Positions 8,964 to 56,633 of a DNA stretch of 56,783 bases are shown here, one piece after another. A model generated the notes under the pieces. It was not told where the DNA came from and searched no databases. It worked only from the letters and a program-made list of their open reading frames with translations. How positions within the stretch are numbered: the stretch's first letter is position 1; the number at the start of each line of letters is the position of its first letter. The stretch comes from an uncultured Bacilli bacterium (GTDB lineage: Bacteria; Bacillota_I; Bacilli_A; RF39; UBA660): assembly GCA_947624955.1 (NCBI GenBank), contig CANQMM010000002.1:1-56783 (forward strand). The letters are read 5' to 3'. The position numbers and the translations under genes are program-made.

Positions 8964-9111
8964 AATACAACCTCATTTCTCTTCTTTATTTTTCCCTTAT
9001 TGTGTATTTATTATAACACAATTTTGCGAAAAATAACTAATTTTGTGATTTTTTTTCAAAAAAGTGTAAATATATGGTATGATATTAAAAGAATAATAAG
9101 TGGTGAAGAGA

Positions 9112-10656
9112 ATGAAAAAGGTTTTATTTCGCATTAAAGGTGATGTACTCTTATTTAAATATAGTAATACGGAATCTAAAGATTTAAAAAAGTTATTAAA
9201 TACCAATGTTATCAGTGATGAAGAATTGTTATTCTCGATGGATTATATCACCGATAATAAAAAAATTGTGGCAAGTTTCATTAAAGATTTAGCCGCTGAG
9301 CAAAATATTACAAAAATAGAAATTCAATCAATTGAATTAGCTAGCTTAATTATCAAAGTATTAAATAAAATTCCAAAAATTGATCTCTTATCAATATTAA
9401 GTGAAGAGACAATTACTTTTGATATCGCCGAAACTATTGTAAACAATGATAATGTGCATATGGTTTCTTGTTACTCTGCTCCCCTATTTATTATCGAATA
9501 CATGGACCGCTACGGGGTTATGTTGGAAAGCCGGAGTGAGTTATTCTTTACAAGCAACTTTATGCAGATTAATAGCTTGGCGCAATATTCCAAGATTTAT
9601 TATAAGAAGAGCATTAAAATACCGGTAGAAATGGAAGAAGATGATTTAGAAGATTTTACAGCTTTTTGTAAGATTAATCGTTATTTAAAGACAATTCATT
9701 TCGAAGCTTGTGATGTCGATAAAATTAAGTCCATTTGTGATATTATCAAAAGTGCCCGCAAGAAAAATATTAAAATCCTAGTTCACGGAAATATTACGAA
9801 CGAAAAAGATGTCAACGTTTTAAGAAGAATTAATAAACAAAATAAAAATAATATGAAGATTAAATTAGTTTATTCGAAAGAATATATTCGGGATAATTAT
9901 CTAAAACAAGTAATTTTTACAACAGCGAAGTATGCAGCGATGATTATCTTAATTATTGTCGGTTGTTCTTTTAGTTTTATTGCCATAAATAACCATAATT
10001 CTAAAAAGAACGTGGAAGGCATTCGCTATACTATCGAAAAAACGATTGCGGAAAATACCGATAATACGGAAATAAAAGAAGAAGGCGAACACGGGCCATC
10101 AGCAATTAAAAGTTTGTTAAGTGTCAATGAAGACACCGTAGGATGGTTAACGGTTAAAGGAACAAGTGTCGATTATCCGGTAGTCCAAACTGTCGATAAT
10201 AGTTACTATTTAAGAAGAAACTTTGATAAGGAAAGTGACTACTCCGGTTGGATTTTTGCTGATTATCAAAATAATATCGAAACTTTGGACCGGAATACAG
10301 TAATTTATGGTCATAATCGTTATTATAGTGATGTTATGTTTGGCTCACTTACTAATCTTTTAAAGAAAGATTGGCAAGAAGATAGTGAAAACTATGTCAT
10401 TACATTCAATACTTTATATAAAGAAATGAAATTTAAAATTTTTTCCGTATACAAAATAAAAAAAACTGATGACTATGTCAAGAAATACTTTAAAAGTGAT
10501 AATGAATTTTTAGATTTTATCGAGATGATAGAAGGACGTAGTGAAATCGATTTTGATGAAGTAATATCAGTTAATGATAAAATTTTAACTCTTTCGACTT
10601 GCTTGCAGAATAATCGAAGATTAGTTGTTCATGCTGTTCTTTTAGCAGATGAATAG
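9112..10656 (+). CDS. class B sortase with long N-terminal cytoplasmic extension
   Basis: C-terminal domain: TVGWLTVKGTSVDYPVVQTVDNSYYL, VIYGHN (His), TLSTC (Cys), RRLVVHA (Arg). One TM at about aa 270-295, preceded by ~270 aa with no recognisable family. ATG at 9112 preferred over GTG at 9100. Confidence 0.75.
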   Translation: MKKVLFRIKGDVLLFKYSNTESKDLKKLLNTNVISDEELLFSMDYITDNKKIVASFIKDLAAEQNITKIEIQSIELASLIIKVLNKIPKIDLLSILSEETITFDIAETIVNNDNVHMVSCYSAPLFIIEYMDRYGVMLESRSELFFTSNFMQINSLAQYSKIYYKKSIKIPVEMEEDDLEDFTAFCKINRYLKTIHFEACDVDKIKSICDIIKSARKKNIKILVHGNITNEKDVNVLRRINKQNKNNMKIKLVYSKEYIRDNYLKQVIFTTAKYAAMIILIIVGCSFSFIAINNHNSKKNVEGIRYTIEKTIAENTDNTEIKEEGEHGPSAIKSLLSVNEDTVGWLTVKGTSVDYPVVQTVDNSYYLRRNFDKESDYSGWIFADYQNNIETLDRNTVIYGHNRYYSDVMFGSLTNLLKKDWQEDSENYVITFNTLYKEMKFKIFSVYKIKKTDDYVKKYFKSDNEFLDFIEMIEGRSEIDFDEVISVNDKILTLSTCLQNNRRLVVHAVLLADE

Positions 10657-10680
10657 TTAGTCTTTTTTGATATAAGATAG

Positions 10681-13600
10681 GTGAAGATAATGGAAATAAT
10701 AGAAACGAGAAAACTTCTAGGACAAATTAATAATTATTTAGAAAATGTAAGTTTGACTCTAAGAGATGAAGATATAGCTAATTTAAAAGAGATTGCTAGT
10801 TTTTTAAAACTTAACATAATCGATAATATGGCAGATACTTTTGAAGGGATGGAACTTGCTAGTTTAGAAATTCTAACGATTATTAGTAGTTATCTAGATG
10901 TTGAAACAATTATTAAAATATTAAGAAGTATTAAACTACGAAAAATATTTAAAGAACAAGAAATCCTCATTTTTTGGCAACGGTTAAAAGAAAATGAACA
11001 AGTTACTTACCTTTTAGATGCTAATTATATTAGTGAAAAAGATTATTTCTTATTACAAGACTTATTAGAAAAGGGGGTTATTTCTTTTGCGGATGTCAAA
11101 GAAAAGATAAGTAAATTTTCCTTAAACTTTAATTTATCTGACGATATAATGCGGAATAATCTCGATTTATTTAGTACTGAGGTCATAGTTAATTATCTAA
11201 ATAAACAGGATTTAGATATTAGCCAAATAGATAAAAAGATTCTAAAGGTAATTCCCGATAATTCCTTAAAGGTTAAAGTAATTTCCCAAGATATTAAAGA
11301 AATATTTAATAGTAGTGATCTACTTGCAAAGCTCGATTACCAAGTACTGGCTAAATTGTACGGCGCCAATAAAATAAGGGAAATGGCAATAAGTAATCCA
11401 AGTAAAGCTTTCTTGGGAGCTTTATATACCTTAGATAAATTTAAATATAAACAATTAATTAATCAAATATTTGAGAGTTTAACTCCGGGAGTAATTATTA
11501 ATAATTGTTATGACTTATTGGATAATAAAGAAAAGATAAAGAAAGACTACTCTCTCTTACTTAAATTTGCCGAAAAGGTTATCGCGGAAATCGTTACGGA
11601 AGAATTCACCGAAGAAGAAATCGTTATGCTATTAAGGAGTCAGGAGTTTGTCGAAGCGATAAGTCCGGAGTTATTAAAACAAATAATGACTATTTTAAAT
11701 TTTAGTACGGTATTTAATCTCTTACAAAATAATCTTATCTATAGTAAATCTTTGAAGATTAAGTGTTTCACTAGGGGTGATGATAAATCTTTAGTTAAAG
11801 GTTTTTTAGATACAGTTAAATTCTATGCGAAGTTAGATAAGGGCATGGGCTATAAATTATTATCAATGCTCGATTATGAAGATGTCATTAACTATTTAAA
11901 AAAGCCTTATATTTTAAGTAATTTAAATGAAGAAGAAATAGTTAGTTTATTATGTATTAAGAATATCAATATTGAAAAATTATTTAATGAAGAAGGATTT
12001 AAAGGGCGAGTTACACGAGAACTATTAATTAACTATATCAATGAAATGTGGAATATTAGTGTCGATTTAGACTTAATTAAAAATCCGGAATTATTTAAAT
12101 TATTGTTTAATATAGATGATGAAGCGTATAACCAATTGAATTTAGCCGATATTAAATATCTATTTACGACGATTTATAATAAAGAAAATTTAGCACTTTA
12201 CAAATCGAATATTAGCGTATTAAGTTATAAGACGATCATCATTGCTTATAAAATGTTAGGAATAAGTAATACTTTAAATATCTTATTTAATAGTAAAGAT
12301 AGTTTAACCCTCGAGGATGTTAGAGAATATCACGATTTATATCTAAAAGATAAACTAGATAAATATTTAGAAAATGATGGAGCTGTACTTAATAACTTGG
12401 AAGATAAAATGATCAAGTTATTGGAGGTGTATGAGAAACCTTTAGAAGAAAAGGATACTACTCAAGGCCGCATTAAAACGGTTATTAATGGCTTAACTAG
12501 TTATGGCGTAGATTATCAACGCTTAGTGAAAATGATGAATCGCTATATCGATTACCGGAAGATCAATCAAAGTGTTGCTGAAGAAGAAATTAAAGATAGT
12601 ATTAGCACTATTAAAGAAGAGATATTAAATAGTTATCAGAATAAATGGCATCAAGAATTTATGAAGAAAGCGATCAATATTTTAAAACTTAAAAAGAGTG
12701 TTTATCAAAAGAATATTAAAAATGTCAATAAAGAATGGTTATTGAATATTAAGTTAAAACTTTTATATAGTATTTTACAAAATAAAACCCGCTTAGAAGG
12801 ATTATTTAAAAGTAATCTAAATGAGGGGAAAAAACTTGAAGAATTAAAGGAAGAACTTAAGAAAAGAAATGTATCTTTAGATGATTATCTAGAAAATATT
12901 CTCTTACCTTTAAGCGATAAAAAACTCGATATTTATAAGTATTTAAATATGGAAATACCGGATAATTACGAGAAATATCTAGAAACTATCGCGGCAAGAG
13001 AAAATTTACAACGTTTAAATAAATATTTAATTAAGTTTAGTTATATTTATGAAGAACAAGAGTTAAAAAAGATTGCCTTAAATATTATCAATGGTGATGA
13101 GCAGGTACCTAGTAAAATCCGTAAGGATGTCAAAGCTTGTCAAGAGATTGTTCGTAATATTAATTTTGAAATCTACTATAATGAACGGAATAAAGAATTT
13201 GAACTTTCGAATATCATCAATGCTTATCAAGATAGTTTATCCGATGATTACTATCAAAAGTATGTTTTAATTGAAGAGTTAGTAGATTATACTAAGCACT
13301 TTGTGAAAAGTTATTTTCGTAAAAGTTTTGTTTATCAATATTATTATGATAAATTTGATAACTACGAAGATGAAGATATTATGTCTGAGGATTTAAAAGA
13401 TTATGAAATTAAAAAGCAAATATTTAGAATTAATGATTTAGAGAATATTCTTGCCGGAGTCGATATTCAAGAAGCAGAAAAAGTAGATGAAGAGTTGATT
13501 GAAGGACTTAATAAGATTAATTATTGGCCAGTGGCGATGACAGGTTTAATTAGTAATGGGGAATTTTACTTGAATAATTATCACGAAGTAGAAAGTTATT

Positions 13601-14406
13601 TAAAAGCAAATAATTATGATATAAGTAAGATTTGTAAAGAAGATTTAATTAAAATTAAACAAACATTAATAAAGAAGAAACCTTGGGGAATGATTAAAAG
13701 TTTTTATCAAAGAATTACGGAAGAAGATATATTAAATGCTTATAGTCAACTATTAAAAAACAATCAGAAGATGATTGGCAATTTACATATTAGCAGGGAT
13801 AACTATAATGTTAGCGATATGCAAGGATGGCATATAGTTGAAGAACTATTAGCACTTTATAACAGTGAAAAAAATGTAGTAAATTGCCACGAATTATTAG
13901 CAAGAATAGCTGATACGAAAGTGACTTATTATTTAGTCAGACATAAGCAAGAAAAAGTCGGCATTGTAGAGAGTGAAATTTTCGGTAACTCCGTAATTTT
14001 AAAGAAAGATATTGGATCAATCAGCAAAGAAGTAATGAACGATTTAGCAAAAGAAATACTCGTTAATTATTTAGATATCGATTATGTTTATTATGAGGAA
14101 GACCTAATCACACGTGAGGGATTTTACAAGGTCAATAAAACTAATGTCTATTACGGAGATTATTGCCAATTGAATAGTTCAGTTTATCAAATGGACAGTT
14201 TATTTATTAATCAAAGTTTATTAAAAATGCTTAAGCTAAATTATGGCTTTAACCGCGATTCAATGACTTTTGAAGAACCAGAATGGGAAGATTTTACGAA
14301 GATAGAATTCGATAATTATAATGTAGCTATTTATCAGGACGATAAAGTGACAGTTAAAATTAATCAGGAAAATGCATATTTTAAAAAATTACAATCAGAC
14401 AATTGA
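10681..14406 (+). CDS. large (1241 aa) hypothetical cytoplasmic protein
   Basis: Uninterrupted ORF 25 nt downstream of the sortase gene on the same strand. No signal peptide, TM helix or sorting signal, and no family recognised. GTG at 10681 or ATG at 10690. Confidence 0.6.
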   Translation: MKIMEIIETRKLLGQINNYLENVSLTLRDEDIANLKEIASFLKLNIIDNMADTFEGMELASLEILTIISSYLDVETIIKILRSIKLRKIFKEQEILIFWQRLKENEQVTYLLDANYISEKDYFLLQDLLEKGVISFADVKEKISKFSLNFNLSDDIMRNNLDLFSTEVIVNYLNKQDLDISQIDKKILKVIPDNSLKVKVISQDIKEIFNSSDLLAKLDYQVLAKLYGANKIREMAISNPSKAFLGALYTLDKFKYKQLINQIFESLTPGVIINNCYDLLDNKEKIKKDYSLLLKFAEKVIAEIVTEEFTEEEIVMLLRSQEFVEAISPELLKQIMTILNFSTVFNLLQNNLIYSKSLKIKCFTRGDDKSLVKGFLDTVKFYAKLDKGMGYKLLSMLDYEDVINYLKKPYILSNLNEEEIVSLLCIKNINIEKLFNEEGFKGRVTRELLINYINEMWNISVDLDLIKNPELFKLLFNIDDEAYNQLNLADIKYLFTTIYNKENLALYKSNISVLSYKTIIIAYKMLGISNTLNILFNSKDSLTLEDVREYHDLYLKDKLDKYLENDGAVLNNLEDKMIKLLEVYEKPLEEKDTTQGRIKTVINGLTSYGVDYQRLVKMMNRYIDYRKINQSVAEEEIKDSISTIKEEILNSYQNKWHQEFMKKAINILKLKKSVYQKNIKNVNKEWLLNIKLKLLYSILQNKTRLEGLFKSNLNEGKKLEELKEELKKRNVSLDDYLENILLPLSDKKLDIYKYLNMEIPDNYEKYLETIAARENLQRLNKYLIKFSYIYEEQELKKIALNIINGDEQVPSKIRKDVKACQEIVRNINFEIYYNERNKEFELSNIINAYQDSLSDDYYQKYVLIEELVDYTKHFVKSYFRKSFVYQYYYDKFDNYEDEDIMSEDLKDYEIKKQIFRINDLENILAGVDIQEAEKVDEELIEGLNKINYWPVAMTGLISNGEFYLNNYHEVESYLKANNYDISKICKEDLIKIKQTLIKKKPWGMIKSFYQRITEEDILNAYSQLLKNNQKMIGNLHISRDNYNVSDMQGWHIVEELLALYNSEKNVVNCHELLARIADTKVTYYLVRHKQEKVGIVESEIFGNSVILKKDIGSISKEVMNDLAKEILVNYLDIDYVYYEEDLITREGFYKVNKTNVYYGDYCQLNSSVYQMDSLFINQSLLKMLKLNYGFNRDSMTFEEPEWEDFTKIEFDNYNVAIYQDDKVTVKINQENAYFKKLQSDN

Positions 14407-27281: not shown

Positions 27282-29255
27282 TTACTTTTTAAGCATTTTT
27301 ATGTATTCACAAATTAGGTTAGCTGTGGCTTGTTTACCGATGCGAGAATCGATACATAAATCATAGTTATCGACTTTTCCCCAAGTTTGACCGGAAATGG
27401 TTTGATAGTAACTAGCACGATTTTTATCTGATTTATTAATATTTTTTAAAGCTTTAGTAGGGGTATCGTGATACATTTCGACGATGTTTTTTACGCGGTA
27501 ATCTTGGGGAGCATAAATGAATATTTTAAGGACATCAGGGTTATCACGCAAAACATAGTCGGCTGCTCGCCCTACTATAACACACGAACCTTCTTGAGCA
27601 ATCTTTTTGATGATCTTTTCTTGGGCAGCGATAGCATATTTTACCGGCGATGTTGTTAGATATAGGTCATGTAAGTGGTCTTGACTACGATTAATATCCG
27701 AGATAAATTCTTGAGCTAAGCCACTTTCTTCAGCGGCTAAAGCAGTAACTTCTTTATAGTAGTAAGGGATATTTAACTTTTGAGCAACCAACTCGCCGAT
27801 GGCTTTCCCTTGGCTTCCGTGCATTCTAGCAATTGTAATGATAACTCCTTTTTTAGACGGTTTAAGATATGAGGATGATGTTTCTTCTTCGGAAGGAGTA
27901 AGATTTTTAAAAAAGTTACTGATTAATATAATCGTTACAATCATTCCGAGTACATCAGCTATCGGGGCAGCTATTAAAGCACCTTGAATGCCATAGTATT
28001 TGGGTAAAATGATTACTAAAGGTACAAAGAAGATAATGTCTCTTGCAAGAGAGACAGCAGCAGCTTTAAAAGGTTCACCTACAGCTTGAAAGAAAATAGA
28101 AGTTAATTTAATTAAGCAAGTAAGCGTTACTAACATTAGAAATAAACGGAAAGTTAAAACGGCAAATTCCATATATAATTCTTCGTTAGTACCAAATATT
28201 TTAATGATAACACTTGGACAAAGTTCAAAGATGATAGTTGATACAATACCAACAATAAGGGAGATACTAACTACTTTTTTGAAGGTTTCTTTAACGCGCT
28301 TTATATTTTTGGCGCCATAGTTATAACCGAGAATTGGTTGCGCTCCTAAAATAATACCGACAATAATATTGATAACGATTGAGAATACTTTCATTGTAAT
28401 ACCGATTACAGCGATAGGAATATCAGAACCATATTTACTCTGGGCTCCATACTTAGCTAACATAATATTACAAACTAGCGAAATTATTACAATACTCATT
28501 TGGGTAATAAAGGTAGAGATGCCTAATTTGATAACATTTTGAAAATTTTGGAAATCGATTTTAAAACTTTCTTTACATAATTTAAAAGTTTTAGTTTTAG
28601 TGTAATAAATTAGGGATAAGATGAGAGTGGCAATTTGACCGATAATGGTTGCATAAGCTGCGCCCTTTATTCCTAAATGGAAAGTAAAAATAAATATGGG
28701 GTCTAAGATGATATTGATAATGGCACCTACGGCCGTAGTTGCCATAGAAAATCCGGGAGAACCATCGGCTCTAATAACGGCGTTCATACTATTACCTAAC
28801 ATATAAACGGGAATAGCAGCGAGGATGATAGTGTAATAATCGCGAGCGAGTCCGATACTTTGGCTACTAGCACCAAATAGATATAATAATTGGTCTTTAA
28901 AAATAAATCCTAAGATTAAGAAAATAATGCTAATAATAAAAGTAATTAAGATACTATTACCAATGGATTTATGGGCATTTTCCGTATCTTGTCTACCTTG
29001 ACACAAAGATAAATAGGCGGCCGCTCCATCACCAAAAGCCCAAGCAAAAGCAACAGCGATGATAGTAATGGGATACACTACTCCGGTAGCGGCATTACCT
29101 AAATAACCTAATTCGCTATTACCAATAAATATTTGGTCCACTATATTATATAGGGAACTTATGAGTAATGATAAAATACACGGTATAGAAAATTTGAATA
29201 GTAGTTTGGATATTTTTTCGGTTCCTAAAAATTGATTGTTTTCTTGATTTTTCAT
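27282..29255 (-). CDS. MATE-family efflux transporter fused to a cytidylate-kinase-like domain
   Basis: About 450 aa with 12 TM and a MATE pattern (LISSLYNIVDQIFIG). The C-terminal ~185 aa are ITIARMHGSQGKAIGELVAQKLNIPYYYKE ... CVIVGRAADYVL (cytidylate_kin2-like). Confidence 0.75.
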   Translation of the reverse strand: MKNQENNQFLGTEKISKLLFKFSIPCILSLLISSLYNIVDQIFIGNSELGYLGNAATGVVYPITIIAVAFAWAFGDGAAAYLSLCQGRQDTENAHKSIGNSILITFIISIIFLILGFIFKDQLLYLFGASSQSIGLARDYYTIILAAIPVYMLGNSMNAVIRADGSPGFSMATTAVGAIINIILDPIFIFTFHLGIKGAAYATIIGQIATLILSLIYYTKTKTFKLCKESFKIDFQNFQNVIKLGISTFITQMSIVIISLVCNIMLAKYGAQSKYGSDIPIAVIGITMKVFSIVINIIVGIILGAQPILGYNYGAKNIKRVKETFKKVVSISLIVGIVSTIIFELCPSVIIKIFGTNEELYMEFAVLTFRLFLMLVTLTCLIKLTSIFFQAVGEPFKAAAVSLARDIIFFVPLVIILPKYYGIQGALIAAPIADVLGMIVTIILISNFFKNLTPSEEETSSSYLKPSKKGVIITIARMHGSQGKAIGELVAQKLNIPYYYKEVTALAAEESGLAQEFISDINRSQDHLHDLYLTTSPVKYAIAAQEKIIKKIAQEGSCVIVGRAADYVLRDNPDVLKIFIYAPQDYRVKNIVEMYHDTPTKALKNINKSDKNRASYYQTISGQTWGKVDNYDLCIDSRIGKQATANLICEYIKMLKK

Positions 29256-45700: not shown

Positions 45701-45777
45701 GGCGGTGTTGGTGAAGTGGTTAACACACCAGATTGTGGCTCTGGCATGCGTGGGTTCGATCCCCACATACCGCCCCA
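45701..45777 (+). tRNA. tRNA-His (anticodon GTG) with encoded G-1 and CCA
   Basis: Hand-folded. Acceptor GCGGTGT/ATACCGC, anticodon stem CCAGA/TCTGG with loop TTGTGGC, T-arm GTGGG-TTCGATC-CCCAC. An extra 5' G pairs with discriminator C. CCA is present. Confidence 0.9.
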
Positions 45778-47215: not shown

Positions 47216-47252
47216 AAAGCAACAATAGGAATTTTATTGTTGCTTATTTTTT
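47216..47252 (+). terminator. intrinsic terminator after the SDR gene
   Basis: AAAGCAACAATA-ggaatt-TTATTGTTGCTT followed by ATTTTTT. It overlaps the 3' end of the convergent gene. Confidence 0.65.
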
Positions 47253-47932
47253 AATTTGTTATCAATGTTCGTTTTGATATTTAGAAGAATTTCTCGTGGA
47301 GTTTTAATATCAGGGAAGGCTTTTAATAAGCGACGATGGAGATAATTCTTTTGCGAAATAATCTCCCTTACTCGTTTAGTAATAGCTTCAGTGTAATCTT
47401 TTTCAGCGGATTTAATTTCATTACGAATGCTTTTAATGATAAAGAAAGAAATAATATTATCAGCAATGTATATTACTGATAAAATAATAACAATTGTCAA
47501 TAATACCGGATAAGATATTTTATTTAATATATTAGTAAAGAAGGGATTAATAATATTGACAATAATTAAACCGAGAATGCCAAAAGGAATAAGGGTCTCT
47601 AAACAGATACGACCATTAATATTATATTTTCGGTCACTATAATCCCACCACCGGGCTTTAAATATCTTTTCTAAAAGATAGCTAGTAAAATATTCTAGAA
47701 CTGAACAAATGAGCATTGCCATAATAAATAGCGTAAATGGTTGATTAGAATACTTATTTAAAAATAGTAAAATTAGAAGGCAGCCATGACCATATATTGG
47801 ACAGATTGGACCGATTAAAAATCCCCTATTGATTAATTTATGATCTTTGACAAAAGTAAAGCCGACTTCAAGTAACCACCCGATAAAAGCATATATGAAA
47901 AATAATGCAATATATAAAACTACTTTATCCAT
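47234..47932 (-). CDS. putative ABC-transporter type IV (CmpB/DUF1113-like) membrane protein
   Basis: Motifs FFIYAFIGWLLEV, GPICPIYG and RWWDYS. Confidence 0.6.
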   Translation of the reverse strand: MDKVVLYIALFFIYAFIGWLLEVGFTFVKDHKLINRGFLIGPICPIYGHGCLLILLFLNKYSNQPFTLFIMAMLICSVLEYFTSYLLEKIFKARWWDYSDRKYNINGRICLETLIPFGILGLIIVNIINPFFTNILNKISYPVLLTIVIILSVIYIADNIISFFIIKSIRNEIKSAEKDYTEAITKRVREIISQKNYLHRRLLKAFPDIKTPREILLNIKTNIDNKLKNKQQ

Positions 47933-47985: not shown

Positions 47986-50900
47986 TTATTTTTTCTTAAT
48001 TAAGAATTTATCACAAGATGCTAGAACTGCTGGTAACAAGAGTAAGATCAATAATGTAGAGCAAATACTTCCTTCCGAAATAGTCATACATATCTTAGCA
48101 GTAATCGCAGAAGCAAAATAACCAACGATTAGAGTAACGATAATTAAGATTGAGGCACTTGTGGTAATAGTATGGATGGAATTATTATAAGCACTAATTA
48201 ATGAATCTTTAATACTTTGCGTCGCACGAGCTTCCTCATAATAAGATGTATATAAAATAGCATAGTCAATGGTTGCACCCATTAAGATACTTTGAACAAT
48301 GAGGATAGATATAAAGTAAACATCGCCACCGAAGGAAAGAATACCCATTGTTAAGAAAACAGCACACTGAATTAGCAATACTAAAACGATTGGAATTAAA
48401 AGAGATTTAAAGGTAAAGGCTACAACAACGAAGATAAATATCATAGTGAGGATAGTAATTAGATTTAATTCACCTTGGAATGTTTTACTCATTTCATAAG
48501 CCATTGGTGAATCACCCGCGATAAAGCCACTAATATTATGACTTTGTAAATCTTGTTCTAATGATTCTATAAAATTAAAGGTTTCCTCTCCTTCCGGAGT
48601 TAATTTAGAATTAATAACTAGACGAGAATACTCTTGACCTACGAGTAATTCCTTAGCATCTTTGATAGTATCTTGAGAGTTGATAATATCGTTTCTTCTT
48701 TCTTCATCGATAAAATCTTGAAAACGTTCATCATTTAAGATAGTCGTATTTAAATAATTAACAAACTCTTCAATAGTTAAGCGATAATCAGGATCGTATT
48801 CCTTTTCACTACCGTAATAGATATAGACTAATTCGATTAAGTTAGGATCGAGGTCATCTGCCAAAGGTGAAAGCGTTTGGTAAGCTTGAGTACTTGTATA
48901 AGTCGTGTGATTTAAAGCAGCATTAATGATGGCATTAACGCTATTTAAACGCGTAATGGTAGAGGCATCAAATGATTGATTATAGGTAGGATTTTTAGCA
49001 ACATCTGTAAGTAAGAAATTAATAAACTCCCGATAAGATAATTTATCTTGATAAGATTTTACTTGGGTATCGTATAGCGAATATAGTAAAGCGGTCTTAT
49101 CCGAAGGGATATTTAAGATAGACGCTACTTGAGTAGAGGATAATGGCTGGTTACTAAGTGTTAATTGCATTACGGTATTTAATAAAGTTAACTTAGAAAT
49201 AGTTGGTGTATCCAATGCAGCTTTTTGATTAGTAATTAAGAAGTTTACGAATTCGACAGGAGACAAACTTGGGTTTTCTTTACTTACTAAACCAATTAAG
49301 TTGTAGATAAAGTTGATGTTATGAACATCTTCTTGCATTAACTCGGCAAGGGCTTCTTTAGAAAATTTAGTCGGATTACTCATTAAGATAGAATTATTAG
49401 CAAGCATTTCAATACTTGCGGTATCGACATTAGCTAAATATGTTGTATTTTGTTTTAGATAGATAATCGTACTTACTATTTCGTTGATAGTATATTCTTT
49501 GGTATTGGGACTAGCTAAAAGTAAAATTTTTTGGACTAGGTCGGTATCGAGACCAAAGAGATTAGCTAATTCTTGAGCATTTAAGGATTTAGTAATCAAT
49601 TCTTGATTAGTAAAGGTGGTCAAAAGACGAAGATTTTCTTTAGTTGTGGTATCAAAAGAGGCATTATATTGGGAATTAGGTAAAACTTTTTGATTAAGGA
49701 AACTAATAAATTCCGGTAATGGTATATTAGTAGTTAAATGCTTAGAATGATAATAAGTAAGTAAATCTTGGACATTATTTTCGCTAATATTGAGCATAGT
49801 AGCAATTTCTTTAGTGGAATGCTTTTGATCGATTAAAGATTCATCGACGAAGTTTTGTAAACGGTCGATATCTTTGCGCATGGATTCTGTTAGATGGGAA
49901 GCCATTTCTGGATTATCATAGACATCGCTTTTAATAAATTTAATTAAATTAGCTAAAGTTACTTGGGATGTTGGTTGATTGTGATAATAAGTATAATAGA
50001 TGATTTTAGTTAAGTAATCCTCAATCGTAATTTCACTACCTAAATCTTGTAGTTGAGGATTTAATTCATCATAAGTTAAAGTTTCATTAATGGTGTTACC
50101 ATAGCAAAGGAGTTCATCAATTTGTTCATTATCTCCGAGTTCTTGGCAATATTCAGCAACTTTTTCTTCTTCACTATTGGGATAAATGATAGCCATTTGA
50201 TTATTGAGCGTAAAGACTTGATCGATTTCATCAGCTCCGGAGTTAGTATAAACAATACCTAGATTGCCTTTTAAAAAGAAAGAGACAACAAAGATAACGA
50301 TAAACAGAATGGAAGCTAGATGACGAACTTTAAAACTGATTTTACCTAAAAAGTCTAATTTAATAATTGGGCATTTTTTACTTGTCTTTTGAATTAAATT
50401 ATCGCAAAGTAAGATTAAACCTGGTAGACAAGTAAAGATACTAACTAAACTTAATAAGACCCCTTTAGCTAAAACTAATCCTAAGTCGCGACCGATGGTA
50501 AAGCTCATAAAGATTAAAGCGAGTAAGCCGACAATGGTGGTAACTGAACTACTAGAAATCGATTGAAAAGCGTGTGACATGGCATTTTTCATCGCCTTTA
50601 CTTTATCTTTTTCTTGAGCCCTTTCTTGACGGTAACGGTTCATTAACATAATGGAATAATCCATCGATAAAGCCATTTGCAAGATAGCAGCAATCGAACT
50701 AGTAATATTAGATACAGATGGGAAAATAATATTCGTTCCGCTATTAAGCATGACGGCAATAAATATGGTAATCAAGAATAAGAATGGTTCGATATAAGAT
50801 TCAGACATAATGATTAAGATGATGGTAGCACTACCAACAGCTAGAGCAATAATATAAAATGGTAAAACACTTTTATTATAGTTAGTAGCATTACCGGAGG

Positions 50901-51309
50901 TATCGACTAGAGATTCCGCAAATTGTGTAGTTACGGCATCATAGACATCACTTACCTCTTGGGAGTCTTCTTCCCCATCGATGGTTAACGTAAAAAGAAC
51001 ATAATTATCTTTTTCTTCTTGGGTAACGTCCGTGACATTATCTAAGTTAGTTAAATAGGCATTAGCTTCTTGGATTTCGTCATCGTTCAAATCTTTTAAC
51101 ATCAGATTCAGCGTGCTAGTGTTTTCGGCAAATTCACTTTCCATAATGTCCAATCCCTGGCGGGTAGATGAAGTACTTGGCAAGTATTTAGCCATATCAT
51201 AATTAATTTTAACTTTCGTTGAAATAAATACAGAAATAATCGCTAAGATGCTGAAAGTTATTAATAAGTAATTTCTTTTTTCAACAATAAAATCGGTAAT
51301 TTTTCGCAT
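47986..51309 (-). CDS. MMPL/RND-superfamily transporter with large repeat-containing ectodomain
   Basis: Two 6-TM bundles (MALSMDYSIMLMNRYRQER and MGATIDYAILYTSYYEE) separated by ~500 aa containing about 6 helical repeats. ATG at 51309 has an AAGGGG SD. Confidence 0.8.
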   Translation of the reverse strand: MRKITDFIVEKRNYLLITFSILAIISVFISTKVKINYDMAKYLPSTSSTRQGLDIMESEFAENTSTLNLMLKDLNDDEIQEANAYLTNLDNVTDVTQEEKDNYVLFTLTIDGEEDSQEVSDVYDAVTTQFAESLVDTSGNATNYNKSVLPFYIIALAVGSATIILIIMSESYIEPFLFLITIFIAVMLNSGTNIIFPSVSNITSSIAAILQMALSMDYSIMLMNRYRQERAQEKDKVKAMKNAMSHAFQSISSSSVTTIVGLLALIFMSFTIGRDLGLVLAKGVLLSLVSIFTCLPGLILLCDNLIQKTSKKCPIIKLDFLGKISFKVRHLASILFIVIFVVSFFLKGNLGIVYTNSGADEIDQVFTLNNQMAIIYPNSEEEKVAEYCQELGDNEQIDELLCYGNTINETLTYDELNPQLQDLGSEITIEDYLTKIIYYTYYHNQPTSQVTLANLIKFIKSDVYDNPEMASHLTESMRKDIDRLQNFVDESLIDQKHSTKEIATMLNISENNVQDLLTYYHSKHLTTNIPLPEFISFLNQKVLPNSQYNASFDTTTKENLRLLTTFTNQELITKSLNAQELANLFGLDTDLVQKILLLASPNTKEYTINEIVSTIIYLKQNTTYLANVDTASIEMLANNSILMSNPTKFSKEALAELMQEDVHNINFIYNLIGLVSKENPSLSPVEFVNFLITNQKAALDTPTISKLTLLNTVMQLTLSNQPLSSTQVASILNIPSDKTALLYSLYDTQVKSYQDKLSYREFINFLLTDVAKNPTYNQSFDASTITRLNSVNAIINAALNHTTYTSTQAYQTLSPLADDLDPNLIELVYIYYGSEKEYDPDYRLTIEEFVNYLNTTILNDERFQDFIDEERRNDIINSQDTIKDAKELLVGQEYSRLVINSKLTPEGEETFNFIESLEQDLQSHNISGFIAGDSPMAYEMSKTFQGELNLITILTMIFIFVVVAFTFKSLLIPIVLVLLIQCAVFLTMGILSFGGDVYFISILIVQSILMGATIDYAILYTSYYEEARATQSIKDSLISAYNNSIHTITTSASILIIVTLIVGYFASAITAKICMTISEGSICSTLLILLLLPAVLASCDKFLIKKK

Positions 51310-51476
51310 GGTAATTTCCCCTTTCTTAAGGAACAAACTGCATTATAACAAGATTACAATAATTAAGTAAATAGCAAATTATTAAATATTGTCTAAATTT
51401 TGACAATGTATATATTTTTGTTCAAAAATATGTTATAATGAGCACACATATTAATGTATGCAAGGAGAGATAAAAA

Positions 51477-52031
51477 ATGAAAGTAAAAGTTTTAAATTCT
51501 TCATCAAGAAAAACTAGAGAAAGAATTAAAAAGTCATTTGCGCTATTAATGAAAGAAAAACAAAGCTTAAATAGAATAACGGTTACGGATTTAGTTAAGG
51601 AAGCGGATATTACTAGAAGTGCTTTTTATACGCATTATGATAATATTTACGATGTTGCTAAGGATTTACAAGATGAAACATTTCACGTATTACTTACCGA
51701 TATTGATAAGTTATATACTTTAGAAAATATCGATGAATACTTTGATGAGATATTTGCTTATATTAAGAAAAACGAAGAGATCTATTCGATGATTCTCGCA
51801 AGTAACGACCCATTATTTTTTACCGAAAGGCTTGGGGAATTATTAACTACTAAATTGATTGGCTTATTAGGTCTTGATACTTCTAAGAATAATTTAAAAT
51901 TACGAATTATTTTATTTATCGATGGGAGTACGAGCATTTTAATTAGAAAATTTAGAGGAGAAATACAAGTTTCTTTAGAAGAAATCAACCAAAATATGAA
52001 AGATAACTTTAAGTTATTATTTATGAATTAA
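51477..52031 (+). CDS. TetR/AcrR-family transcriptional regulator
   Basis: N-terminal HTH ITVTDLVKEADITRSAFYTHY. Divergent from the MMPL gene and co-directional with the paralogue triplet. Confidence 0.75.
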   Translation: MKVKVLNSSSRKTRERIKKSFALLMKEKQSLNRITVTDLVKEADITRSAFYTHYDNIYDVAKDLQDETFHVLLTDIDKLYTLENIDEYFDEIFAYIKKNEEIYSMILASNDPLFFTERLGELLTTKLIGLLGLDTSKNNLKLRIILFIDGSTSILIRKFRGEIQVSLEEINQNMKDNFKLLFMN

Positions 52032-52091
52032 ATATTGCCAAATGACGATATTTATACTATAATAACTCCTTGTTTTAAAGGGGTGGCATAA

Positions 52092-53588
52092 ATGGATGAT
52101 GATTCAATTGAAAAATTAATGAATGGCGATGTAGACTTTTTAGATGATTTTTCCGCTCTTAGTCGAACTATTTTAGCGGGACAAATCAGGAGAAGCCCCA
52201 ATGCTAATGAAATTATTAGAAGTTTTATTTCCCTAATAATCGATAAACTACCCTATTTTTGTTTCAATTTAATATATGATAATGCGGAATTTGATAATGA
52301 GTTAAGATATTTATTAAATTACTATATTAAATATAATGATATTGAAGAATTTGAGTTTAGAGGAATGTTATTTAATACTCCCGCTGGTAAAGATTATGCT
52401 CTAGATAATATGGAGTTATTATGTAAAGATGAAAATATGTTAAATATCATATTTGAATTTATCTTTAGAGATATGGATAAAAATATGGACTTAGTTAAAT
52501 TATTTTATTTACATAGCGACTTACATATTAGATATTTATTTATGAAGTATATAGTGGAACATCATCCAGAATTAATAAATGTTATTTATGATGATTTTAT
52601 GAAATATTTAACTAGTTATACTTTTCTTGAAGGAGAACAACTGATGATTGAGCCGGAACTGATGGCAGAAGCCGATATTAGTGATTTAGCTGTAGCAGTT
52701 TTAAAATCGCCTTTAGATAGAGATATATGGGCAAAATTAAAAACTTATATTTTAGAAAAATACCGAGAGAACTCTCTAGCTCGGAATTTGTTGGAACCGG
52801 AAGCTGATTATAAAGAAGATAATTCATTTACTTTCGTTAACTCTCCGGAATTAGTGGATGAATTTAAGCAAGATGCTGATAGATTATTTTTAACTTCATC
52901 TAATTACCGATTTACAATTTTTACAGATTACGTAGGAACTTTATCGAAGGATGTAAGAAAGAAGTATGAGGAATTTATTAAATGTTTCTATCGAAAAGAA
53001 CGACCATACAACCTGCAGTACGATATCGAGATGGTTTATGAACATTATTTAGGTAGCAAGTTGGAAAGCTACGTTGATAAGTATTTAGGATTAAGTAAAA
53101 GTAAAGTTACAAGATTTATTGGTAGTGGAACTTGTGCGTGTTGTTATCAAATTGGGGATTTTGCTTTTAAATTACTTTTACATAAATGGTCGAGAGAAGA
53201 AGAAGTTTGCCCGAATTCTTACTTAATTGTCAAAAATTATGAAGCAGATTATGTAAGAGATAAATGGGGAGTTATTCGTGCGGGGATTGAGGTGCAACCT
53301 TATTTACATCGGGGAATGGATGCCGTACCATTTGCGGTTTTAGACTTTTGGAAAGCGGAGTTAGCTAAACAAGGGTATTACTGTATGGATATGTTAGTTA
53401 AAAAGGGGAAAGTGGAAAATTGTCGCTTACTAAACAGCTACCTCGATGCTGATTGTGATGATCCGGGAAGTTTGCCAGATACTTTTAAAGAATATCCAGT
53501 GGTGTTAATTGATCGGGACTTAGTTTTTAAATTAGGATATACACCAACCTATGTTAGAGTAAGTGGTGGATATTATAGCGGATATTAA
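52092..53588 (+). CDS. uncharacterised helical-domain + kinase-like-domain protein, paralogue 1
   Basis: 498 aa with AAAGGGGTGG SD. Shares NMDLVKLFYLH, DADRLF, GSGTCACCYQIGDFAFKL and LLNSYLDADCDDPGSLP ... VVLIDRDLVFKL with the next two genes. Confidence 0.7.
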   Translation: MDDDSIEKLMNGDVDFLDDFSALSRTILAGQIRRSPNANEIIRSFISLIIDKLPYFCFNLIYDNAEFDNELRYLLNYYIKYNDIEEFEFRGMLFNTPAGKDYALDNMELLCKDENMLNIIFEFIFRDMDKNMDLVKLFYLHSDLHIRYLFMKYIVEHHPELINVIYDDFMKYLTSYTFLEGEQLMIEPELMAEADISDLAVAVLKSPLDRDIWAKLKTYILEKYRENSLARNLLEPEADYKEDNSFTFVNSPELVDEFKQDADRLFLTSSNYRFTIFTDYVGTLSKDVRKKYEEFIKCFYRKERPYNLQYDIEMVYEHYLGSKLESYVDKYLGLSKSKVTRFIGSGTCACCYQIGDFAFKLLLHKWSREEEVCPNSYLIVKNYEADYVRDKWGVIRAGIEVQPYLHRGMDAVPFAVLDFWKAELAKQGYYCMDMLVKKGKVENCRLLNSYLDADCDDPGSLPDTFKEYPVVLIDRDLVFKLGYTPTYVRVSGGYYSGY

Positions 53589-53604
53589 AAATAGAGGGAT
53601 GAAA

Positions 53605-55017
53605 ATGACAAGTTTAGAAAGACTTAAAAATGGAGATGTAACAGTACTTGATAGTTATCCATTTAATAATTTTGATTATTTAGCTTTAATGATTAGGCAA
53701 AGAAGTGATGCAACAGAGATAGTTAGAGGATTTATTAAGAAAGTGCGGGATACTAAACCGGTGTTTTGTTTTCATATTATCTATGATCAAGAAGAATTTA
53801 AAGACGATTTGCAGTATTTATTAGATAATTGTTTGGATTTTGCACAAATAAGAAGCGAGGAATTAGAAGCTATGCTTTATCAAACAAGTGTGGGAAAACC
53901 ATATATTAAAAGACATCTTCTAGAATTAGAAAAAGATGAAGAAAAACTGAGAATAGTTTTTGGCTTTATAATGCGCAATTTAGAACAAAATATGGATTTA
54001 TTAAAGATATTTTATTTGCATCAAAATTTACATGTGAGATTCTTGTTTATGAAATTTATAGTTAATGAACAGCCAGAGATGTTAGATATTATATATGATG
54101 ATATTATGAAATATCTATTTATCCAGTATGATGATGGTAGTATAGAGTTAATGAGGGATGAGGATATATGTGATTTAGCTAAAGCAATACTGCTAGCAAA
54201 TCTAGATAAAAAGATTTGGTTAAGATTAAAAGAATATATTTTAACGGCATATCCGAAAAACTCATTAGCTTATAAACTATTATTTAATGGTTTCCATATG
54301 GAGGGAAAGCTATTGGCAAAAGATCTTGTAACAAATAGAATCTTAGAAAAAGAATTTACGGATGATGCGGACCGACTATTTACTTCTTCTCGAAAAGGAA
54401 AACTCTTGATTTTTGATGGTTATAAAGATTATTTAACTGAGGAAATTAGACAGCAATTTGCTAGTTTTTTACGAACTTTTACACGACCAGATTTGTCAAC
54501 TTTCCCGGGGGATGATGTATACCGAATTTACAAAGCTGATTTAGGATGTAAATTAGAAGAATATGTGGAGACTTACTTAGATTTAAGTAAGAACAGAACT
54601 ACTGGTTTTATTGGATCAGGTACTTGTGCTTATTGCTACCGGATTGGCGATTATGTTTTGAAATTAATTATGCGGAAGTATATACAAGACCCAATGGACC
54701 TTCGGTCATACTTAATAATTAAAACGTTTGAAGAAACCTATGTAAGAGACGAATCAGGAATAATAACCGCCGGTTTAGAAGTTCAGCCGTTGCTAACAAA
54801 ACAAATTAGTGAGGTGCCTAGTGATGCGTATTCGCGTTTATTAGCGAGTTTTAAGGATGAAGAATTATTATGTCAAGACGTTATACCCCGTAATTTTATG
54901 TTACTAGATAGTTATTTGGACGCCGATTGTGATGATCCGGAAAGTTTACCAAAATGGTTTAAACAATATCCAATGGTTTTAGTAGACAAGGATTTAGTAT
55001 TTAAATTAAAAAAATAA
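53605..55017 (+). CDS. uncharacterised helical-domain + kinase-like-domain protein, paralogue 2
   Basis: ATG at 53605 (MTSLERLKNGDV) has GAGGG 6 nt upstream. Motifs GSGTCAYCYRIGDYVLKL, QDVIPRNFMLL and VLVDKDLVFKL. Confidence 0.7.
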   Translation: MTSLERLKNGDVTVLDSYPFNNFDYLALMIRQRSDATEIVRGFIKKVRDTKPVFCFHIIYDQEEFKDDLQYLLDNCLDFAQIRSEELEAMLYQTSVGKPYIKRHLLELEKDEEKLRIVFGFIMRNLEQNMDLLKIFYLHQNLHVRFLFMKFIVNEQPEMLDIIYDDIMKYLFIQYDDGSIELMRDEDICDLAKAILLANLDKKIWLRLKEYILTAYPKNSLAYKLLFNGFHMEGKLLAKDLVTNRILEKEFTDDADRLFTSSRKGKLLIFDGYKDYLTEEIRQQFASFLRTFTRPDLSTFPGDDVYRIYKADLGCKLEEYVETYLDLSKNRTTGFIGSGTCAYCYRIGDYVLKLIMRKYIQDPMDLRSYLIIKTFEETYVRDESGIITAGLEVQPLLTKQISEVPSDAYSRLLASFKDEELLCQDVIPRNFMLLDSYLDADCDDPESLPKWFKQYPMVLVDKDLVFKLKK

Positions 55018-55042
55018 CTTGGAGAAAGGAGGAAAGAGGAAA

Positions 55043-56506
55043 ATGGAATCTAGTGATAAGCTTTTACTAAAAGACCCCTTTGAAAGATTAAAAGAGGGAG
55101 ATGTCGATTACTTTATCAATTTAAGCGTAGGAGATATATTTATTTTAATAAGAATGCTCAAACAAGTAGACAAAGAAGAAAGAAAAGAAATTATTAAAGG
55201 CTTTATTGATAAAGCTTTGGATATTAAGCCAAAATATTGTTTTGATTTAGTTTTTGATGAAAAAGATTTTCAAGAAGAAACTATTTATTTAATTACTAAT
55301 TATATAGAAAGTGAATATTTAGATGAAGCCTATAAGGGGGATTATATAAATTATTTTAAAGCTTTATTAAGTAAGGAATTTATTGAAGATAATTTAGAGA
55401 AGCTAGAAAAGGTATGTGAGCGTTTATTTACTTTGGTTTTAGGATATATTCTAGATAATTTTAGCGAATGTAATGCTTTAGTGATGCATTTTGCTTGGCA
55501 TCCGAACTTGCATATTAGATCTTTATTTATGAAATTAATTGTTCAGCAATATCCTAATTTGTTAGGAGTCATTTATGAAGATTTATTAAGCGTTCTTGTT
55601 ATTAATGATGGAGATAAAACTATATTGATGGACCAAGATGATATTAGTAATTTAGCAGTGGCAATATTTAATAGTAGTTTAGATAAAAGTCTATGGTGGA
55701 AATTAAGGCAATATATTTTAGATAACTACCCCACTAATTCTTTAGGCGGTTATTTATTAGAAAAATATCCGGCTTATGATGAAGAAGAAGGATATACGGA
55801 TTTAAAAGAAAGACCGGAGGCATTAGAAGAATTTAAAAGAGATGCCGACTTATATTTTTTAACTTCGGCACGTCATAAATATTATATATATCTTGAACAA
55901 AGTGAGAGTTTATCCAATAATGTTTGCCGGAAATTAGAAATTTTATTGAGTCATTATGGAGCTCGATCTTTATACCATCCGGATATAGAAAGAATCTATA
56001 AGTATGGTTTAGGGCAAAAATTAGAGGAGTTAACGGAAAAGTATTTAGATTTAAGTAAAAGTAAAATAACTAGATTTATTGGGTCAGGTACTTGTGCAAG
56101 TTGTTATCAAATTGGGGATTATGCAATTAAGTTAGTATCACAAAAATATTCTCGGGAAGAAACACTGGTTCCTCGGTCTTATCTAATACTTCCTACCTTT
56201 GAAGAAGAATACGTACGCAATGCAAATAACTGTGTACTAGCAGGGATCGAGGTACAAAGACTACTGACAAGATCAGCTATTGGCATACCATCATCAGTTT
56301 TACTTTTCTTTAAAGAAGAATTGCGAAAACAAGGTTATCGTTTAGGAGATACATTAATTAATGGTCAAGCTGGAGATAATTGTATGCTTCTCGATAGTTA
56401 CTTAGATGCCGATTGTGAGGACCCGGAAAGTTTACCAAATACTTTTAAGGAATACCCTTTAGTTTTAATTGACCGTGACCAAGTATATAAACTTTCTTAT
56501 AACTAA
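55043..56506 (+). CDS. uncharacterised helical-domain + kinase-like-domain protein, paralogue 3
   Basis: ATG at 55043 (MESSDKLL) has GGAGG upstream. Motifs GSGTCASCYQIGDYAIKL, GDTLINGQAGDNCMLL and LVLIDRDQVYKL. Confidence 0.7.
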   Translation: MESSDKLLLKDPFERLKEGDVDYFINLSVGDIFILIRMLKQVDKEERKEIIKGFIDKALDIKPKYCFDLVFDEKDFQEETIYLITNYIESEYLDEAYKGDYINYFKALLSKEFIEDNLEKLEKVCERLFTLVLGYILDNFSECNALVMHFAWHPNLHIRSLFMKLIVQQYPNLLGVIYEDLLSVLVINDGDKTILMDQDDISNLAVAIFNSSLDKSLWWKLRQYILDNYPTNSLGGYLLEKYPAYDEEEGYTDLKERPEALEEFKRDADLYFLTSARHKYYIYLEQSESLSNNVCRKLEILLSHYGARSLYHPDIERIYKYGLGQKLEELTEKYLDLSKSKITRFIGSGTCASCYQIGDYAIKLVSQKYSREETLVPRSYLILPTFEEEYVRNANNCVLAGIEVQRLLTRSAIGIPSSVLLFFKEELRKQGYRLGDTLINGQAGDNCMLLDSYLDADCEDPESLPNTFKEYPLVLIDRDQVYKLSYN

Positions 56507-56520
56507 GAAGACAGTAATAT

Positions 56521-56550
56521 AAAAAATACTCCAAAGTAAGGAGTATTTAG
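56521..56550. terminator. hairpin terminator between paralogue 3 and tRNA-Glu
   Basis: AAAAAATACTCC-aaagtaa-GGAGTATTT. The U-run is good on the minus strand (tRNA-Glu) and weaker on the plus strand. Confidence 0.45.
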
Positions 56551-56558
56551 TAACAAAC

Positions 56559-56633
56559 TGGTAGCCTATAAGGGAATTGAACCCTTGTCTTCTCCGTGAG
56601 AGGGAGATGTCTTAACCTCTTGACTAATAGGCC
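56559..56633 (-). tRNA. tRNA-Glu (anticodon CTC) with encoded CCA
   Basis: Hand-folded on the minus strand. Acceptor GGCCTAT/ATAGGCT (G1-U72), D-arm GTCAAGAGGTTAAGAC (Glu-like), anticodon stem TCTCC/GGAGA with loop CTCTCAC, T-arm AAGGG-TTCAATT-CCCTT. Confidence 0.8.

Follow-up and report, generated by a model that had tools for sequence, protein, structure and literature searches.

Three consecutive, co-directional genes at positions 52092-56506 of a 56,783-nucleotide (nt) stretch of DNA from an uncultured Bacilli bacterium (GenBank assembly GCA_947624955.1, contig CANQMM010000002.1, positions 1 to 56,783 of the forward strand; the whole stretch is termed the window below) encode diverged paralogues, numbered 1 to 3 in gene order, with a helical N-terminal domain (N-domain) and a C-terminal domain (C-domain) for which structural modelling supports a protein-kinase-like (PKL) fold. 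In our judgement the balance of evidence lies, by a little, with the reading that these proteins represent a new, lineage-restricted PKL family in which a minimal, catalytically complete core acts on a substrate (most likely a protein or peptide) presented by an alpha-solenoid, the gene having been triplicated and having diverged in this genome. In the mechanism that we propose, each protein would be cytoplasmic and would combine an ARM/HEAT-like alpha-solenoid of ~235 amino acids (aa) with a C-terminal module of ~250 aa, the last ~160 aa of which form the PKL core. The glycine loop with G346 and the lysine K360 would hold ATP, D433 and N443 would form the catalytic loop, and D474 and D476 would bind Mg2+ (residue numbers throughout are those of paralogue 1). 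The activity would most likely be ATP-dependent phosphotransfer, because the residues proposed for ATP binding, catalysis and Mg2+ binding are all retained, and the solenoid would serve as the substrate-docking surface. The operon-like triplet would be driven by its own promoter, perhaps under the control of the neighbouring TetR-family regulator.

An uncharacterised protein family of gut bacteria

The three paralogues align from end to end with pairwise identities of 40-44%, and all of the conserved blocks on which their full-length homology had been proposed were found, as were the motifs quoted for the C-domain (FIGSGTCAxCYxIGDyaxKL; GY...D...N..LL / QDVIPRNFMLL; DADC(D/E)DP(E/G)SLP; VLIDRD/VLVDKD). 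Database searches bore out the original prediction that no Pfam family could be named for these uncharacterised proteins. No Pfam family was matched by the three window proteins, by 62 family members or by 10 very divergent members, and even at permissive expect values (E 1-10) the 62 and 10 members matched none of the kinase families Pkinase, RIO1, APH, Kdo, ABC1, Choline_kinase and AceK_kinase. The three window proteins had no match, kinase or other, in NCBIfam at permissive E and none among the PADLOC defence models, while hmmsearch of the PDB sequences with three different profiles returned no meaningful match. A weak, recurrent match to photosystem II CP47 over 'FxxxPVVLIDKD' (E 0.7) was set aside as a chance motif match.

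The family itself is small: only 223 relatives were found at E <= 1e-3 when 1.84 billion representative proteins were scored exhaustively, 64 clusters were found in a 5.8-billion-protein index, and a scan of one genome per GTDB species gave 59 loci. All named relatives are annotated as 'hypothetical protein'. A profile of the C-domain only returned a single protein from the 5.8-billion-protein index and was uninformative. The hosts are nearly all uncultured gut metagenome-assembled genomes (MAGs), labelled Bacilli, Tenericutes, Mycoplasmatota or Erysipelotrichaceae, with rabbit, goat, sheep, deer and human as animal sources. Four loci (L017, L020, L046 and L065) come from MAGs labelled Ignavibacteriales or Muribaculaceae; since the distribution is otherwise restricted to Bacilli, mis-binning or mislabelling is likely in these cases. 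No homologues were found among phage genomes, plasmids or IMG/VR, and with the PADLOC search also empty a mobile or defence origin was rejected. Our literature search found no paper on this family; it could be listed in KINtaro or in the tables of a preprint of which the available part was consulted (10.64898/2026.09.18.752743).

Predicted fold and domain layout

The full-length AlphaFold2 model of paralogue 1, built from a 62-sequence alignment, had a predicted local distance difference test (pLDDT) score of 92.1 and a predicted template-modelling (TM) score of 0.86. When it was compared with the PDB by Foldseek, all 50 matches listed were kinases, including CDK7, ACVR2A, CDK12, TGFBR2, SRPK1/2, PKR, GSK3, PknB, Rio2, WbdD and AceK. 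Most of the matches listed had a probability of 0.95-1.00, E of 0.007-0.07 and 160-195 aligned columns, with root-mean-square deviations (RMSD) of 5-9 A. Similarly, most of the 50 BFVD matches listed were kinases, the best match included (E 9e-4), and phage RIO-, ABC1-, APH- and ChoK-like proteins were among them. Taken one by one these matches are weak, while their unanimity across kinase families is strong, and the model comparison supports the PKL fold that had earlier been read from motifs in the C-domain.

The N-domain (aa 1-250), modelled alone, reached a pLDDT of 93. Because its Foldseek matches in the PDB were solely alpha-solenoids (E 0.2-2, TM up to 0.45), it appears to be an ARM/HEAT/PUF-like repeat domain without a specific relative; the matches, all weak, comprised an Integrator subunit, ZYG11B/ZER1, PUF proteins, importins, a condensin II subunit and a chain of the PI3KC3 complex. 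Isolated members additionally gave sub-threshold Pfam matches to solenoid families (Cnd1 and the FANCI solenoid, E ~0.08). The solenoid is followed by a beta-hairpin and helical linker module and then by the PKL core (Table 1). The original description of the catalytic domain as very small thus fits the core proper, of ~160 aa (336-498), but not the conserved C-terminal module as a whole, which begins near residue 247, the most divergent subfamily matching the family profile best over ~247-486.

Conservation of the putative catalytic residues

Conservation was counted over 187 unique family sequences, in which the lysine, asparagine and metal-binding aspartate proposed at the outset proved invariant or nearly so, and position 433 is always Asp or Glu (Table 1). 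In a 42-sequence alignment reaching down to 17% identity the sole invariant residues were K360, E400, D433, N443, F465, P469, V471, D474 and D476, and paralogues 1-3 each keep G346, K360, E400, D433, N443, D474 and D476. Strands predicted at 340-345, 349-354 and 357-362 frame the glycine loop, with K360 located on the third strand, two residues past a conserved Val or Ala (VxK / AxK motif). D433 and N443 lie between the lone helix (414-426) and a strand at 444-446, and D474 directly follows the strand at 470-472. Between beta7 and beta8 the family has a hallmark insert of ~20 residues. In the 62-sequence alignment (A2) its invariant residues are L447, Y450, P462 and P469, with D452, F465 and K466 close to invariant; in a more diverse alignment (A3) F465 and P469 do not vary at all, and L447, Y450, A453, P462 and K466 hardly do. 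Since all three copies keep every catalytic residue, active enzymes appear more likely than pseudokinases; of the possibilities originally offered (atypical kinases, pseudokinases or nucleotide-binding proteins), the kinase-like family stands and the pseudokinase is disfavoured.

D433 and N443 are separated by nine residues (D-x9-N) in 166 of the 187 sequences. The canonical D-x4-N spacing was seen in P0076, P0106, P0115 and L055, and also in paralogue 2 by the three-paralogue alignment, in which its catalytic loop carries a 5-residue deletion (hmmalign places this loop ungapped); G428 is absent from paralogue 2. Because D-x9-N is found in most members, the long catalytic loop is the family norm and the short loop of paralogue 2 is derived, which reverses the earlier view that paralogues 1 and 3 carry insertions in this loop. 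When the family was compared by hhalign with PKA, or with PKA, CDK2 and PknB together, a single local alignment was returned that ran from the glycine loop to the beta3 lysine (P 0.012-0.08); its register, which is not significant, equates G346, C351 and K360 with G52, V57 and K72 of PKA.

Beyond the core, many members (e.g. P0045 and P0065) end in a tail of the form ...KQLxxxY, with the Tyr terminal or near-terminal. The tail of paralogue 1 (aa 483-498) contains GGYYSGY, and paralogues 2 and 3 stop right after the last core strand. Such a tyrosine tail could be an autophosphorylation or pseudosubstrate element.

Departures from the canonical kinase core

According to Scheeff & Bourne (2005, PMC1261164), the universal core of the PKL superfamily contains helix C and is closed by helix F. 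The model of paralogue 1 has strands at 357-362 and 384-389 with no predicted helix between them, where helix C would be expected, and in divergent members the segment between strands 3 and 4 is just ~12 residues long. After D474 only short strands are predicted and the chain stops 8-24 residues past this residue, so that helix F, the activation segment and helices G-I are all lacking. In the most divergent subfamily, conservation of the core extends to the helices ahead of beta1 (252-334). From this arrangement we infer that the pre-beta1 helices (~250-335) may stand in for the missing C-lobe helices, with a circular permutation as a possible origin. Additionally, E400 on beta5, a strand that neighbours strand 3 in the kinase N-lobe sheet, may take over the role of the helix-C glutamate by pairing with K360, while E369 is a second candidate for this substitution. 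That the family constitutes a distinct and unrecognised PKL branch, with a helix-C-less N-lobe relying on E400, a helix-F-less C-lobe, helices on the N-terminal side in a permutation-like arrangement and a fused solenoid, is a bolder proposal that we put forward tentatively and hold to be a good deal less probable than the phosphotransferase reading as such. If active, the proteins would have one of the smallest functional kinase cores known and would represent a signalling enzyme specific to this lineage of uncultured gut Bacilli with reduced genomes.

Several observations weigh against the reading as a minimal kinase. Both helix C and helix F, parts of the universal core, are missing at their canonical positions, and so is the HRD/HGD histidine. 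No single PDB match from Foldseek reached E <= 1e-3, the searches with Pfam and PDB hidden Markov models (HMMs) were blank for kinases, and the profile-profile comparison with PKA, CDK2 and PknB covers the glycine loop to beta3 lysine segment alone and is non-significant. The placement of residues was judged by predicted secondary structure, so that their clustering in space is conjectural. Additionally, the gene neighbours are not conserved and give no pointer to a particular substrate, and PKL folds are also known to carry out AMPylation (SelO) and glutamylation (SidJ).

Copy number, phylogeny and genomic context

When the family HMM was applied to all open reading frames (ORFs) of 65 other fetched loci, exactly one family gene was found per locus, the tandem array being present in the window only. 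One MAG, Lapin-032__bin83, carries two unlinked family genes on different contigs (L009 and L059), with 45% and 31% identity to paralogue 1, so that genomes with more than one copy do occur beyond the window, though not as tandem arrays. The closest relative (locus L067) has a single-copy orthologue, P0002, that is 56% identical to paralogue 1. In a neighbour-joining distance tree, paralogues 1-3 and P0002 formed a clade in 99 of 100 bootstraps and paralogue 1 and P0002 were sisters in 91 of 100, with paralogues 2 and 3 on branches about twice as long and paralogue 1 the slowest-evolving copy. Because the tree groups the three paralogues with P0002 and places paralogues 2 and 3 on long branches, the triplet appears to be a lineage-specific expansion of a normally single-copy chromosomal gene with two fast-evolving copies. 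The faster divergence of copies 2 and 3 suggests sub- or neo-functionalisation.

No recurrent partner gene emerged when neighbours (up to five genes per side) were clustered in 61 non-redundant loci; the largest cluster, whose members lay at scattered positions, spanned 14 loci, and in the inspected loci the family gene stood amid housekeeping genes such as mur/fts, glmS, uvrA and sporulation genes. Downstream of P0002 in L067 lie a gene of the exo/endonuclease-phosphatase family and one of the Abi_2 (abortive infection) type (5869-7853), an arrangement not seen in the other loci. The window encodes a CmpB-type membrane protein (PF06541, E 1e-51; 47234-47932, minus strand) adjoining the MMPL transporter gene, and L067 has a homologue with 34% identity close to its family gene (3026-3568); these genes are a vestige of local synteny between the two closest relatives. 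In loci L008-L010 a tRNA gene is found 2-4 kb upstream of the single family gene, and in the window tRNA-His(GTG) (45702-45777, plus strand) lies 6 kb upstream of the triplet.

The TetR/MMPL neighbourhood and a possible small-molecule kinase

As originally described, a TetR gene lies upstream of the triplet, and an MMPL transporter gene diverges from that TetR gene (Table 1). Two palindromes with a common half-site, TAAATATTGYC, were found, one in the MMPL/TetR divergent promoter region (site A, 8-nt spacer) and one before paralogue 1 (site B, 4-nt spacer); the window holds no other half-site palindrome of this type, each of the two overlaps a -35 element, and the exact 11-mer half-site occurs three times in all. 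The 60 nt between TetR and paralogue 1 hold the promoter-like site of the triplet. Site A is kept upstream of the orthologous TetR in L067, the only such orthologue (78% identical, 3 kb from P0002, with convergent membrane-protein genes between them), and the right half of site B is not conserved before the L067 family gene. Among loci L001-L065 no MMPL homologue and no TetR orthologue was found, one weak TetR-family match in L056 (E 1e-5) apart.

Site A is a probable TetR operator, and the palindrome over the -35 of the triplet makes TetR control plausible in this genome. The module of regulator, transporter and kinase-like genes that had been suggested is not a property of the family, however, as about 60 other loci lack TetR and MMPL and no neighbours are conserved; what survives of the suggestion is a weak, local indication of TetR control, which, even if correct, says little on the function of the family.

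These same genes provide the setting for the alternative that fares best, a small-molecule kinase of the choline, aminoglycoside or macrolide type acting on a metabolite, lipid or antibiotic, which in this genome would form a detoxification or resistance module with TetR and MMPL and whose triplication would widen the substrate range. The adjoining regulator and transporter genes, the half-site palindrome shared by the TetR/MMPL and triplet promoters and the tandem expansion, which is typical for substrate-diversifying enzymes, would all fit such a module, and both the I-D-R-D metal motif, resembling the ID(F)E of choline/aminoglycoside-type kinases, and the phage APH- and ChoK-like proteins among the BFVD matches listed would fit such an enzyme. 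We nevertheless regard this as rather unlikely, as the pairing with TetR and MMPL does not recur in about 60 other loci, the L067 TetR is separated from the family gene by convergent genes, the second palindrome is not conserved in L067, no APH, choline-kinase or other Pfam kinase match was obtained for the 62 members at E <= 10, and an ARM/HEAT-like solenoid is more usual for macromolecular ligands.

Other readings of the C-domain

A PKL core with a role other than phosphotransfer, either AMPylation- or glutamylation-type chemistry or a nucleotide-gated scaffold or pseudokinase with the solenoid as effector, would account for the atypical features of the domain, namely the absence of helices C and F and of the HRD histidine, the 5-residue loop insertion and the ~20-residue insert by the metal loop. 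PKL folds with conserved 'kinase' residues do catalyse non-kinase reactions, according to two reports (PMC6858067; KINtaro, PMC10870513). The invariant K/D/N/D set is, however, a phosphotransferase requirement, and a pure scaffold would not retain all such residues across this divergence, which makes a role of this kind distinctly unlikely.

Another possibility is that the kinase likeness is spurious, the C-domain being an unrelated alpha/beta fold with chance motifs. The PDB Foldseek matches, with E of only 1e-2 and RMSD of 5-9 A, leave room for this, as does the failure of every sequence-profile method to tie the family to kinases. Against it stand the kinases of many families that make up 50/50 of the PDB and most of the BFVD matches listed, the five independent invariant residues found in the right order and in the right secondary-structure elements, and the correct register of the sole hhalign alignment; we consider a chance resemblance very improbable.

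The original prediction also proposed redox- or metal-modulated proteins, with a strictly conserved CxxC in the glycine loop and a third conserved Cys in the insert. All three paralogues do carry C348, C351 and C455, and the catalytic domain is on the whole rich in Cys (C373 in 84% and C351 in 52% of members). Strict conservation ends with the paralogues, however: the C348/C351 pair was found in just 8 of the 187 sequences, not including the sister orthologue P0002, position 348 being Thr in 143 of 187, while C455 is Cys in 88 of 187. The three occur together in just six alignment rows, two of which are paralogue 2 with different starts. By the non-significant hhalign register, position 351 corresponds to a hydrophobic beta2 position (Val in PKA), with V or A there in 66 members. 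Co-variation as a set was not seen among the positions at which Cys is frequent (57, 351, 373, 440, 444 and 455), and for this reason a Cys4 metal site made of C373, C440, C444 and C455 was also rejected. Because of the rarity of the CxxC and this lack of co-variation, regulators switched by a disulphide or bound metal at these cysteines are scarcely credible as an account of the family, and redox or metal control is unsupported beyond, at most, the lineage of the window.

Significance

The novelty lies in a family unseen by the sequence resources tried, in the absence of two universal-core helices from their canonical positions, in an unusual solenoid fusion and in a narrow, uncultured host range. 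The surprise is lowered by the fact that the superfamily is well known and that structure-based screens continue to yield new PKL families, as in a 2026 preprint on the oral microbiome (bioRxiv 10.64898/2026.09.18.752743). If active, this would be a kinase-like enzyme that none of the sequence-based annotation resources tried can detect, its core without two 'universal' helices would help to define the minimal requirements of the kinase fold, and it would offer the first functional handle on a conserved, lineage-specific protein of gut Bacilli/'Tenericutes' known from metagenomes only. The triplet represents a natural divergence experiment with one conservative and two fast copies, one of the latter with a canonical-length catalytic loop. 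Should the proteins be ordinary minimal kinases, the gain would be smaller, namely a new family of the Pfam type and the correct labelling of about 200 hypothetical proteins.

Features of the locus and the window

The starts of the triplet genes were fixed by inspection of ribosome-binding sites (RBS) and by independent gene calls in four other assemblies of the same locus. The gaps of 16-25 nt originally given hold within the triplet (16 nt between paralogues 1 and 2, 25 nt between paralogues 2 and 3) but not between TetR and paralogue 1, where the spacing is wider, as noted above. Rfam searches found no riboswitch or RNA leader in the window or in eight other family loci.

Table 1. Coordinates of the triplet, its neighbours and the predicted elements of paralogue 1 (positions in the window; conservation over 187 family sequences).
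Feature	Coordinates	Strand	Details
MMPL/RND-type transporter	47986-51336	-	1116 aa; Pfam MMPL, E 6.8e-44; divergent from TetR
Site A palindrome	51383-51412	.	TAAATATTGTC-N8-GACAATGTATA; MMPL/TetR divergent promoter region, over TTGACA
TetR-family regulator	51477-52031	+	Pfam TetR_C_8, E 9.5e-7; upstream of paralogue 1
Site B palindrome	52029-52054	+	TAAATATTGCC-AAAT-GACGATATTTA; overlaps -35 of the promoter-like site before paralogue 1
Promoter-like site	52035-52063	+	TTGCCA-17-TATAAT; ahead of paralogue 1; 11/12 consensus positions
Paralogue 1	52092-53588	+	498 aa; ORF list, RBS inspection and independent gene calls
N-terminal all-helical solenoid (aa 1-235)	52092-52796	+	~17 short helices in predicted ARM/HEAT/PUF-like repeats; AlphaFold2 pLDDT 92-93
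Beta-hairpin and helical linker module (aa 236-335)	52797-53096	+	Secondary structure of the model; co-conserved with the kinase-like core
Predicted minimal PKL core (aa 336-498)	53097-53585	+	beta1-beta5, one helix (414-426), catalytic and metal loops, chain end
Glycine loop to beta3 lysine, G346...V358-x-K360	53127-53171	+	G346 187/187; K360 187/187
E400, strand beta5, IEVQ motif	53289-53291	+	Glu in 184/187; strand 395-403
Catalytic-loop equivalent, D433...N443	53388-53420	+	D433: D 175, E 12; N443 187/187
Conserved ~20-residue insert, beta7-beta8	53430-53498	+	LxSYxDADxxNPExLPxWFKEYP; family hallmark
Putative metal-binding motif, D474-R-D476	53511-53519	+	D474 186/187; D476 185/187; DFG-Asp equivalent with acidic residue at +2
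Paralogue 2	53605-55017	+	470 aa; AGAGGG RBS 6 nt ahead of ATG at 53605
Paralogue 3	55043-56506	+	487 aa; AAGGAGG RBS upstream of ATG at 55043
tRNA-Glu(CTC) and hairpin/T-run	56524-56633	-	tRNA 56559-56633, hairpin/T-run 56548-56524; convergent; bounds the 3' end of the triplet

The remainder of the window is an ordinary low-GC Firmicutes chromosome, which also encodes an AddAB-like helicase-nuclease, a phosphoketolase, a D-Ala-D-Ala carboxypeptidase, a P-type ATPase and a sortase. At 1116 aa the MMPL transporter is longer than usual, with a hydrophilic stretch of ~500 residues between its two membrane bundles that contains apparent repeated helix-turn-helix-like segments (e.g. STKEIATMLNISENNVQDLL, NAQELANLFGLDTDLVQKILL and STQVASILNIPSDKTALLYSL) with weak Pfam matches to helix-turn-helix families. 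At 9100-14406 (plus strand), a 518-aa sortase-domain protein is followed by a 1241-aa ORF without a Pfam match, possibly a sortase-anchored surface protein; this stretch is low in GC and has a strongly positive GC skew (0.23-0.29). At 27282-29255 (minus strand) one ORF joins a MatE-type transporter domain and a cytidylate-kinase-like domain (PF13189), an unusual pairing.

Comparison with known systems

AceK (PDB 6k5l and 3lc6) resembles the family in having a helical N-terminal domain (~300 aa) followed by a C-terminal PKL domain, and in the Foldseek search with the full-length model its entries came second and fourth. The alignments extended to as many as 515 columns, the long ones with an RMSD of ~25 A. 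The host bacteria differ, however, and there is no aceBA gene context; because hhalign against E. coli AceK gave a probability of 0.2% and the N-domain search retrieved solenoids, not AceK, a relationship was rejected.

Aminoglycoside and choline kinases (APH/ChoK) share with the family an acidic residue at +2 of the metal motif (IDRD in the family, IDFE in these enzymes). Unlike them, the family has no Pfam APH or choline-kinase match, no histidine of the Brenner-type HxDxxxxN motif and no large helical C-lobe. Fusion of an alpha-solenoid to a PKL module is also known from PI3K/PI4K (helical and kinase domains) and SCYL/Vps15 (kinase and HEAT domains), which offer an architectural analogy only, these proteins being eukaryotic, far larger and not among the catalytic-domain matches listed. 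Actin-fragmin kinase likewise has a catalytic-loop insertion; that of the family is just 5 residues long and is missing in some members.

In the RIO/Bud32 type, represented by A. fulgidus Rio2 (PDB 1zao, rank 18 among the PDB matches) and by a phage RIO-like protein in BFVD, the core is small, lacks an activation loop and substrate-binding subdomains and is preceded by helices before beta1, as in the family. RIO kinases keep helix C and helix F. They also lack the beta7-beta8 insert and the solenoid, and no Pfam RIO1 match was obtained for the family.

The best structural matches were to eukaryotic-type protein kinases (CDK7, ACVR2A, PKR, PknB; Pfam Pkinase). Unlike these, the family has no detectable sequence relationship to Pkinase, no helix C, activation segment, helices F-I or HRD motif, and in most members a 5-residue insertion in the catalytic loop. 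What it has in common with them is the glycine loop, the beta3 lysine, the catalytic-loop Asp and Asn (with D-x4-N spacing in paralogue 2) and the metal-binding Asp after beta8.

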